Below, piece by piece: positions 9,001-12,000 of a DNA stretch of 64,000 bases. The DNA comes from Trypanosoma brucei (lineage: Eukaryota). Location: positions 4,768,001-4,832,000 of the forward strand of contig CH464491.1 in assembly GCA_000002445.1 (NCBI GenBank), in the 5' to 3' direction. Each line of letters opens with the position of its first letter. Positions within the stretch are counted from its first letter, which is position 1. Made by a program: the position numbers.

Positions 9001-12000
9001 TTACATTGCACTCTGTATCTACCTTATTATCCCCTTCATTTCCTCTTTATGTTTGATGATGCACATTGTCATGTTTGTTTGAAGCAATGAATCTTCCATT
9101 CCCCTCGTATTCTTCTTGTTTGTCTCCTCTCACAATATACCTCGTGCTCTTCTACCACTCTTATCATCCGCTTTTATACTCATTCACTAACTTACTCCAT
9201 TTACAACTTGCCATTGTATTGAATGATTCTACTTTTAGTAGTCACTATGTTCTCGCGACTACAGTTATAATATTAGTCTATGCACACTCACCATACATTT
9301 CTATAATTATTATATTTGTTATTATAACCCTAAAAAATATAATAATAATAATAATAATAATAATAATAATAATAATAATAATAATAATAATAATAATAAT
9401 AATAATAATAATAATAATAATAATAATAATAATAATAATAATAATAATAATAATAATAATAATAATAATAATAATAATAATAATATCCATAAAATAAAAT
9501 AAATAAAAATAAAATACCTCTCATTTTTCATAGTCTATCACCCTATCGCTTTATACCCATAGGCCACTATCATAAATTTCATTATTTTTAATAATTTAAA
9601 AATTCTGCGTATTTTCATCAAGAAATGTTAAAACGCATAAACTTTTTGTTAATTTAGAAAATTCTCTCAAAATAAGAAAAGGTCTCAAAATGGAGCAAAA
9701 ATGTTTTGCCAATAATTCTTAAAAGGTTTAAGCTAGAATCAAAAATGCAAGCCAAAGAGGGGCCTTGTTAATGACAAACTAATTGCTTCCTGTGATGTTT
9801 GTGGGTGTTTTTTCATCATTTTCCACTTTCACCCCTTCTTTGAGTTTGCATTTTCCATTGCTGTAGTCACAATATTTGTCATTTTTGCACTCATTTTCTC
9901 TGGTGTCTGGTTTGCATTTTGCCGCTTCCGTTTCTCCTGGGGTCGGAAAATGCTTTGTTTGCTCTATCTGATGTAGTTTGCCGTAACAGGCGGCCTGTGC
10001 CAGAGCGCCGTTTTCGTCTTTGGCGGACGCCGCTACGGTTGTTTTTTTGACGTCTTCTGCGGCCTGGTACTTCATTTCCTTTTGTTTTAGTGGATCTATT
10101 AACTTGCTTTGTAGTGAGCCGGTTATTCCTTGGAACAGGCCTTTGATGGTCTTTTCTTTCTCTCCTGAGGTTGAAGGTGGCATTGTTTTCCCTGTGGTTT
10201 CCAGCGATGCCACATCTTCCGCTTCGCTGTCAGATGCTAGCTCGGCGACGGTTTTGTCCAAGTAGCCGCTTATCGTTGCTACTGTTAGCTGCCGTAATTC
10301 GCATGTTACCGCTGTTGTCTGCTCTTCGCTGACAATGTGTGTGTCCCTGCCGTATACTTTGCCCGCTGTGCCTATGCAGTTGTTTGTGCTGCTGTTGATA
10401 AGCGCGGTTTCTGCTAGGTGCTCCGTCCGTGACGCTTTGGCGTCCAGTAGACCTAACAAGTTGTTTGATGACCTTCCGTGTGGGCCGGTACTGGTTCCGC
10501 AGACTCCGGCATCGAAGTTGCCGTCGTCTGTGTTGTAGGTTCCTACGGTGAACAAATTCCCTGATATCTCTATTGGTACCGCTTTCTCTATTTGTACGCC
10601 TTTGTAGTGCGTTATTTGGGCCCTGCCGTCTATCGCCTGCCGTATGTGGTTTGAGTCATCCAGGTTGGCGTTACATTTGTTAGCCTTTGCTGCTGAGATA
10701 GTCGCTTTGATCCCGCATTTTTATCTTGTGTTGCTGCTTCCAGCTGGCGCCGTTAGCCCCGCTACGTTCGCTGCCAACGTTGGGGCTATATTTTTACCAG
10801 ACATCTTCTGTAATAATCGGATTTGCGCTGCCCTCGCGTTGAGTATTCTCTGGGCTGCTTCAAGCTCCGCCGCCTTTGGTGCCTCTTGTCTCGCTTGCTT
10901 TAACAACCTCGCTGTTAGTGCCAAGAGTGTTGCGAACTGCTTGCTACGTGTCGTTCCCTTGAAGGAGCATTGTGCTGTTTGCAACAATTCGACCTCCTCC
11001 GCCAGCTTTACAATCTGGTTCCTTATCTTCGACTGTAGTATATCGATTTCCCGAGTTAGGCCGTCGATAAATACTAGTTCGTGGCATCCGGTTGTAACTG
11101 CGTTCTTGTAGTTTGTGTTGATTTCTCCTCGTACAGCTTGCCATGTTATGATCAGCACCATTAGACCAGAAAAAAGCCTGATCCGCTGTTCCGTTGTGAC
11201 ACACTTCCGTTGGCGACCGTGGTTGCTTCCTGCTGTCGAGTGGTGTGTATTTTTTAAGTTAACAGAGGGTGATGTTTGCTTGGGTGATCGGCCGCAATTG
11301 TAGTCATGTCCTCTAGCGTGGAGATTTTAATTTAAGGTCAATTACAGTGGTGTCTCTGTCATTTTAACTCTTCTCATTTGTAGCTTTTATCCTCCTTATC
11401 CAAAACTCTAGTCCTACCATTCTTGAAAATACATATTTTATAATTTCTAATCTTCTCTATGATCAGTTGATTCTTTTGCGATACATCCTTTGCCTGCAGC
11501 AATGTGACGTTTCTTCTTGGGTATACACGTTTTGGCCTGTTTGTCGGTTAAAAAAAGCTTATTTTATGTCTCTTGCATTAAGGCTTGGTATTTGTGCCTC
11601 CATAAAAGGTTCCTCGTTGGTTTGTCTTTGCTAATAAACGGTGTTACCTCTGCTTCAGCGAGAACTCTGCGAATTATCCACTGTTCAAGTGATGCCAGAA
11701 ACAGCACCTTCTGCTGACATGACAGCAGTGGAATGCTGTTTGTAACCTTCTGTTCTACATAGAGCTCATTTGTAACTTAAAACATGTGCTATTTCAAGAA
11801 CATTTTGCACTTTTATTCTTCTTTTGCTTTCCGTCGCAATCCATTAGTAGTCATAATTCTAAAATGTTTCCTCCATATAATATTATATTGTTTTCAACAA
11901 ATATTAGTCATTATCAGTATATATGATGAAAACAATTCGACATTATGTCACACTTACATAATTTCTTCCCATTTTTCACAAATGGACATTATAATCCGCC

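Follow-up and report, generated by a model that had tools for sequence, protein, structure and literature searches.

Triplet runs of the (TRR)n or (TAA)n type are part of the 70-bp (76-bp) repeats, which typically lie about 1.5 kb upstream of VSG genes. In the canonical unit these runs are placed between the AGAGCAG segment (i.e. ...TTATAA/AGAGCAG) and the GT core GTGTTGTGAGTGTG, and they are purine-rich on the VSG-sense strand, short and interrupted. Much longer versions have been on record at VSG flanks for decades: the title of Campbell, van Bree and Boothroyd (1984) gives (TAA)90 flanked by 76-bp repeats, and that of Aline et al. (1985) gives (TAA)n flanking intrachromosomal VSGs. In the later literature TRR/TAA repeats are described as able to become non-H-bonded and (TAA)n as 'physically unstable'. 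For the active expression site there is an established hypothesis, set out in reviews, in which instability of (TAA)n stalls replication, the stall leads to breaks and the breaks lead to VSG switching.

Here we analyse a 64,000-nucleotide stretch of the T. brucei brucei TREU927 genome (hereafter the window), in which one cassette border carries a long pure TAA tract. The tract proves to be real, and we read it as a microsatellite of the AAT·ATT class in a silent subtelomeric VSG array. It resembles the triplet runs of the 70-bp (76-bp) repeats in motif class, in its place at a VSG 5' border about 1.5 kb upstream of the gene and in its predicted easy melting, but it lies 5' of a conserved box rather than in that canonical slot, and it is pyrimidine-rich on the sense strand, pure and 48 units long. 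With the tracts named in the titles of 1984 and 1985, and with a (TAA)40 tract at one of our comparison loci (L002), it has in common that tens of pure TAA units adjoin 70-bp repeats upstream of a non-expressed VSG. The 1984 tract, going by its title, has 76-bp repeats on both sides, whereas the present one has a 70-bp unit on one side only, and the L002 tract differs from it in polarity and slot. In common with AAT·ATT microsatellites in general and with the non-H-bonded TTA·TAA structure of Ohshima et al. (1996), it is a pure non-coding array with a seed in its paralogues, and it combines an absence of hairpin potential with a very low duplex stability, both computed here.

The host array and the anatomy of its cassette borders

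Since the VSG fragments are almost all on the minus strand (Table 1), the window is a silent subtelomeric VSG array that is read antisense. The pseudogene downstream of the tract consists of a 133-aa VSG_B N-terminus (7337-7738) followed by frame-shifted fragments. An orthologous fragment from T. equiperdum OVI is 98.9% identical to 7144-8324 and encodes an identical 133-aa N-terminus; its contig (1190 bp) ends 1 kb short of the tract, and no orthologue that reaches the tract was found. On the other side, a gap of 294 bp separates the tract from the last ORF stop (9779) of the preceding pseudogene, whose 3' flank is 9517-9778. Protein searches with the flanking VSG fragments yielded, for this second pseudogene, only a T. 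equiperdum paralogue of 79% identity, and exact look-ups with seven other ORFs of the window returned no orthologous contig.

The array contains some elements of a different kind. Between 34700 and 46500 there is a plus-strand island within the minus-strand array, with a VSG_B fragment (37763-38665, +) and the ESAG1-like gene EAN80659.1. An ORF at 17490-17849 (+) encodes a CCHC zinc knuckle (Pfam E = 2e-4) and one at 20108-20680 (+) looks RNase H-like by sequence, without a Pfam match; together they may constitute a degenerate retroelement between VSG cassettes. A 321-aa ORF at 26798-27763 (-) is rich in Ser, Gly, Pro and Arg and has no Pfam match.

All cassettes of the window have the same border order in VSG-sense, namely a T-rich stretch that ends in ...TTTATTTTAT, then a box GG-ATATTAGTTAGGGTTATAA and then one or two 70-bp units. 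The units themselves are built of short interrupted TAA/TGA triplets, the GT core and TATATACGAATATTATAATA, and the canonical form is plainly visible in the tandem array of one comparison locus. The box, with the sense sequence TTTATTTTAT-GG-ATATTAGTTAGGGTTATAA, is conserved directly 5' of every 70-bp block of the array, is always VSG-sense oriented and contains one telomere-type TTAGGG(TTA) hexamer. Our comparison sample is small, with five loci (L002-L006, 74 kb, VSGs oriented +) drawn from two T. equiperdum assemblies, IVM-t1 (T. b. equiperdum) and OVI, which rest on mixed read technologies. A search with a profile of the window boxes recovered six uninterrupted boxes in the window and 15 in these loci, all of them on the VSG-sense strand; the only interrupted box among the 22 (seven in the window, 15 in the comparison loci) is the one at 9322. 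Pairwise alignment of the box with the 70-bp unit puts ATATTA opposite the GAATATTA segment, by which it is only suggested that the box may be a diverged partial 70-bp unit.

At the locus of interest the sense strand reads ...TTTATTTTATGGA-[TAT x49]-ATTTTTTAGGGTTATAA-TAACAAATATAATAATTATAGAAA-GTATGGTGAGTGTG-CATAGACTAATATTATAACTG, which means that the tract splits the box, with TTAGGGTTATAA on its 3' side. The half of the box 3' of the tract contains one TTAGGG hexamer and forms the 17-nt spacer (9322-9338) between the tract and a single degenerate 70-bp unit, in which triplets (9297-9321), GT core (GTATGGTGAGTGTG, 9283-9296) and CATAGACTAATATTATAACTG (9262-9282) can all be recognised; its canonical triplet slot is thus present, short and interrupted. 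Deletion of 9339-9485 renders the locus colinear with the other boxes. This tract-deleted alignment is the one we used, as MAFFT, run on the eight borders, misplaced the box owing to the insert. BLAST comparisons agree: the left flank (9265-9333) is paralogous to the 70-bp units at 58567-58615, 52266-52313 and 16351-16415, and the right flank (9479-9555) to 6012-6089, where it is contiguous with its box. A 70-bp unit is found on the VSG side only; on the other side there is box sequence and then the region 3' of the preceding VSG. The proposal, made in a sequence-only reading of the window, that the tract is located at the 5' border of a VSG cassette is therefore correct, with a distance of 1601 bp to the ATG at 7738; its placement inside the 70-bp repeat does not hold, for the tract adjoins the unit and interrupts the box 5' of it.

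Table 1. Features of the 64-kb window around the triplet tract (positions in the window)
Feature	Position	Strand	Evidence or remarks
VSG fragments	2916-4532, 6264-7738, 9779-11191, 12957-13676, 49131-50791, 55095-57456, 58858-60570, 62908-63993	almost entirely -	Pfam VSG_B, tblastn
VSG pseudogene downstream of the tract	6264..7738	-	ORFs, Pfam VSG_B, tblastn
Single degenerate 70-bp unit	9262..9321	-	87.8% identical to the 70-bp unit at 58567-58615
Box, 3' half	9322..9338	-	sense ATTTTTTAGGGTTATAA, consensus TAGTTAGGGTTATAA; pattern search and tract-deleted alignment
Pure trinucleotide tract	9339..9485	.	direct read, Tandem Repeats Finder, script, simulations
Box, 5' half	9486..9516	-	sense GGTATTTTATTTTTATTTATTTTATTTTATGGA; colinear with boxes 2669, 6001, 16404, 52390, 58701, 62691
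Preceding VSG pseudogene, fragments in different frames	9779..11191	-	ORFs, tblastn, T. equiperdum protein
Boxes in the window	2669-2683, 6001-6015, 9322-9336, 16404-16418, 52390-52404, 58701-58715, 62691-62705	-	pattern search
Hypothetical gene EAN80658.1	34737-35279	-	exact protein match, TREU927
ESAG1-like gene EAN80659.1	45472-46476	+	exact protein match, TREU927

Extent, rarity and duplex stability of the tract

Both direct reading and a script delimit an uninterrupted pure period-3 run of 147 nt, which reads ATA x49 on the plus strand (48 complete TAA units, 9340-9483) and TAT x49, or (TTA)48, on the minus (VSG-sense) strand. Tandem Repeats Finder reports an array that matches the tract, with an imperfect A-rich extension to 9516, and no second microsatellite in the 64-kb window. 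In 200 first-order Markov versions of the window, in which the dinucleotide content was preserved, the longest period-3 run averaged 11.3 nt and never exceeded 15 nt, and about 1e-80 runs of 147 nt or longer would be expected by chance, which can thus be ruled out as an explanation. The runner-up in the real sequence measures 21 nt (at 24957), and the remaining TAA/TTA-type runs comprise three to six pure copies, or five to six TRR units with interruptions. The sequence-only description of a pure tract of some 48 TAA copies, much longer than the other triplet runs of the window, is hence accurate in both respects, and its coordinates hold as well. A coding interpretation was rejected, as the 143-aa poly-Ile ORF at 9066-9497 (+) is merely the tract translated in frame. 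The site of the runner-up, a (TTA)6-7 at 24957-24977 beside a GT-rich fragment (sense strand GAATGTGTGTTC-AATAATAA...), has no recognisable box and is probably the isolated remnant of a 70-bp unit.

Compared with other VSG-flank triplets, the length is an outlier but it is not unique. Canonical TRR runs have a median of six units and range from five to 19, with one outlier of 41; a situation in which most borders carry tracts of equivalent length, which would have made this one unremarkable, was not encountered. The outlier is the pure (TAA)40 of locus L002 (T. b. equiperdum IVM-t1, CM010677.1, 4452-4575, with the 40 units at 4454-4573), which has ...TTAGAGTTATAA... on one side and the GT core on the other. 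An intact VSG of 511 aa ends 390 nt before it, and an intact VSG of 508 aa follows after 1.6 kb. There are also shorter pure runs, namely (TAA)10 at position 7974 of L002 and (TAA)11 at position 6710 of L003. The tracts of L002 and L003 occupy the canonical slot, unlike the tract at 9339-9485. In this small sample about one border in twenty carries a tract of tens of units; such tracts have long been known from VSG flanks and recur there.

The tract is also the least stable 147 bp of the window. Nearest-neighbour calculations on 147-bp windows give -0.82 kcal/mol per step for the tract, compared to a mean of -1.33 (sd 0.10) over the whole stretch (z = 5.0) and to -1.03 for the next least stable segment. 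The pure A/T stretch to which it belongs (9331-9486) spans 156 nt, and the next longest such stretch in the window spans 28 nt. For both strands the minimum free energy of the folded single-stranded DNA is 0, which is worse than that of all shuffles and rules out a mechanism that involves hairpins or cruciforms. The (AT)n flexibility peaks of common fragile sites are AT-rich elements that form cruciforms or hairpins; the tract shares with them a long pure A/T composition and a low stability, but TAA·TTA is not self-complementary and does not fold in this way. The tract is an easily melted region and not a hairpin or cruciform former. The easy unwinding that had been attributed to it from its sequence is in agreement with the calculation, and the low computed stability accords with the non-H-bonded state and the physical instability described for TRR/TAA repeats in the literature.

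Polarity and origin of the tract

All (TRR) runs of at least five units were mapped by strand in 138 kb of array DNA, i.e. the window and the five comparison loci. The VSG-sense strand carries 38 of the 40 runs, including every one of the 38 canonical runs. One of the two exceptions is the tract itself, which has TAA on the plus (antisense) strand and reads (TTA/TAT)n in VSG-sense; the other is a (TGA)7 at 37687, beside a plus-strand VSG fragment. The latter (37687-37707, +) is located 56 nt upstream of that VSG_B fragment and is, besides the tract, the only TRR-type run of at least five units on the plus strand of the window. BLAST likewise returns the tract in an orientation reversed with respect to the neighbouring triplets. 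That the canonical runs share one polarity is simply a consequence of the descent of the repeat unit and provides no evidence of selection.

The box offers a plausible point of departure for an origin on the spot. Around the point of insertion the boxes have the consensus GGA-TAT-TAG-TTAGGG, and the locus reads ATGGA[TAT x49]ATTTTTTAGGG where the consensus has ATGGATATTAGTTAGGG. As the paralogous box at 6001 reads ATATTATTTAG, a one-base change suffices for a (TAT)2 seed. From the paralogous boxes we infer that the seed would have been the short proto-repeat TAT-TAG within ...ATGGATATTAGTTAGGGTTATAA, in the box directly 5' of the single 70-bp unit, and that local replication slippage from this proto-repeat would have produced the long tract. 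The locus displays the features of a slippage-born microsatellite, i.e. a pure array, colinear flanks and a seed at the homologous site of a paralogue, and its location in the box rather than in the (TRR)n slot would make the tract a microsatellite that arose independently at the border of the cassette. The reading that we favour, with a probability of about 0.8, is that the tract is a neutral, length-unstable microsatellite, a by-product of the AT-rich border, neutrality being the default reading.

Two other accounts concern the nature of the tract. According to one of them, which was implied by the sequence-only reading, the tract grew out of the (TRR)n segment in its canonical place within the 70-bp repeat and was possibly inverted at a later stage. 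The triplet composition is indeed identical, the 70-bp unit is only 17 nt away and an expanded canonical slot is known from L002, yet the unit's own slot (9297-9321) is present and short and the tract lies beyond the TTAGGGTTATAA box with the opposite polarity, so that slot and polarity both contradict the account. Inversion of an expanded canonical unit is in turn ruled out because both flanks have kept their sense orientation, which leaves such an origin extremely improbable. According to the other, the tract would be an artefact of assembly or cloning, either spurious or badly wrong in copy number. Pure AT-rich triplet runs are prone to slippage in cloning and sequencing. Against this, 147 bp is less than the length of the Sanger reads with which, we presume, TREU927 was sequenced, such that the tract could be spanned; both flanks are unique sequence that fits colinearly into the architecture of the cassettes, and a comparable (TAA)40 is present in an independent MiSeq/PacBio assembly. 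Nor do the short contigs of T. equiperdum OVI end in TAA runs, a pattern that would have suggested assembly breaks. Cloned VSG flanks with (TAA)90 were moreover reported in 1984, going by the title of that paper, and we regard an artefact as very unlikely.

Recombination and the silent VSG archive

A third account, put forward in the sequence-only reading, holds that the tract is a fragile or recombination-initiating site. In full, it would have fork stalling or opening by supercoiling lead to breaks, to recombination of this cassette and to rearrangement of the archive or altered use of its donors. It is here that the duplex stability is lowest in the window, the tract sits exactly at the cassette border and, according to reviews, (TAA)n is physically unstable, can turn non-H-bonded and could stall replication. 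The same reviews, however, still rank a role of the repeats in break formation as a hypothesis, and published BLISS mapping did not reveal clear breaks in the BES1 70-bp repeats; after loss of RAD51, breaks accumulated in the active expression site only and not in silent arrays. The locus belongs to a silent, donor-type array upstream of a pseudogene, while the lesion that triggers a switch must be in the recipient; hairpins and cruciforms are impossible; and there is no rearrangement scar, as both flanks are colinear with other cassettes. On balance we consider the account unlikely, albeit less so than the two above. A variant, in which the box 5' of the array 70-bp repeats is a second hotspot of triplet expansion and long expansions of either polarity mark or promote array breakpoints and might alter donor use, seems very improbable to us; if it were true, it would tie microsatellite instability to the evolution of the silent archive and not to switching itself.

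As for switching, the neutral reading fits the way in which gene conversion would proceed at such a locus. The initiating lesion would be in the recipient expression site and not in the silent donor, and the conversion tract would start in the 70-bp unit on the VSG side, in which case 9339-9485 would not be copied. The reverse polarity would, in addition, bar parallel pairing of the tract with the TRR runs of the expression site. With the tract outside the copied segment and in the wrong orientation for the expression-site TRR, a role in VSG switching is unlikely.

What we describe is a further instance of the long-known TAA·TTA tracts at VSG borders, and by itself it carries little weight. 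Should such tracts coincide with array breakpoints they would provide a handle on the reshuffling of the silent VSG archive, although nothing here points in that direction. Its significance is in the first place that of an anatomical correction, namely that long tracts can arise outside the canonical slot and with reverse polarity, and that genome-wide censuses of triplet length in 70-bp repeats should, as a consequence, sort the tracts by slot and by strand.
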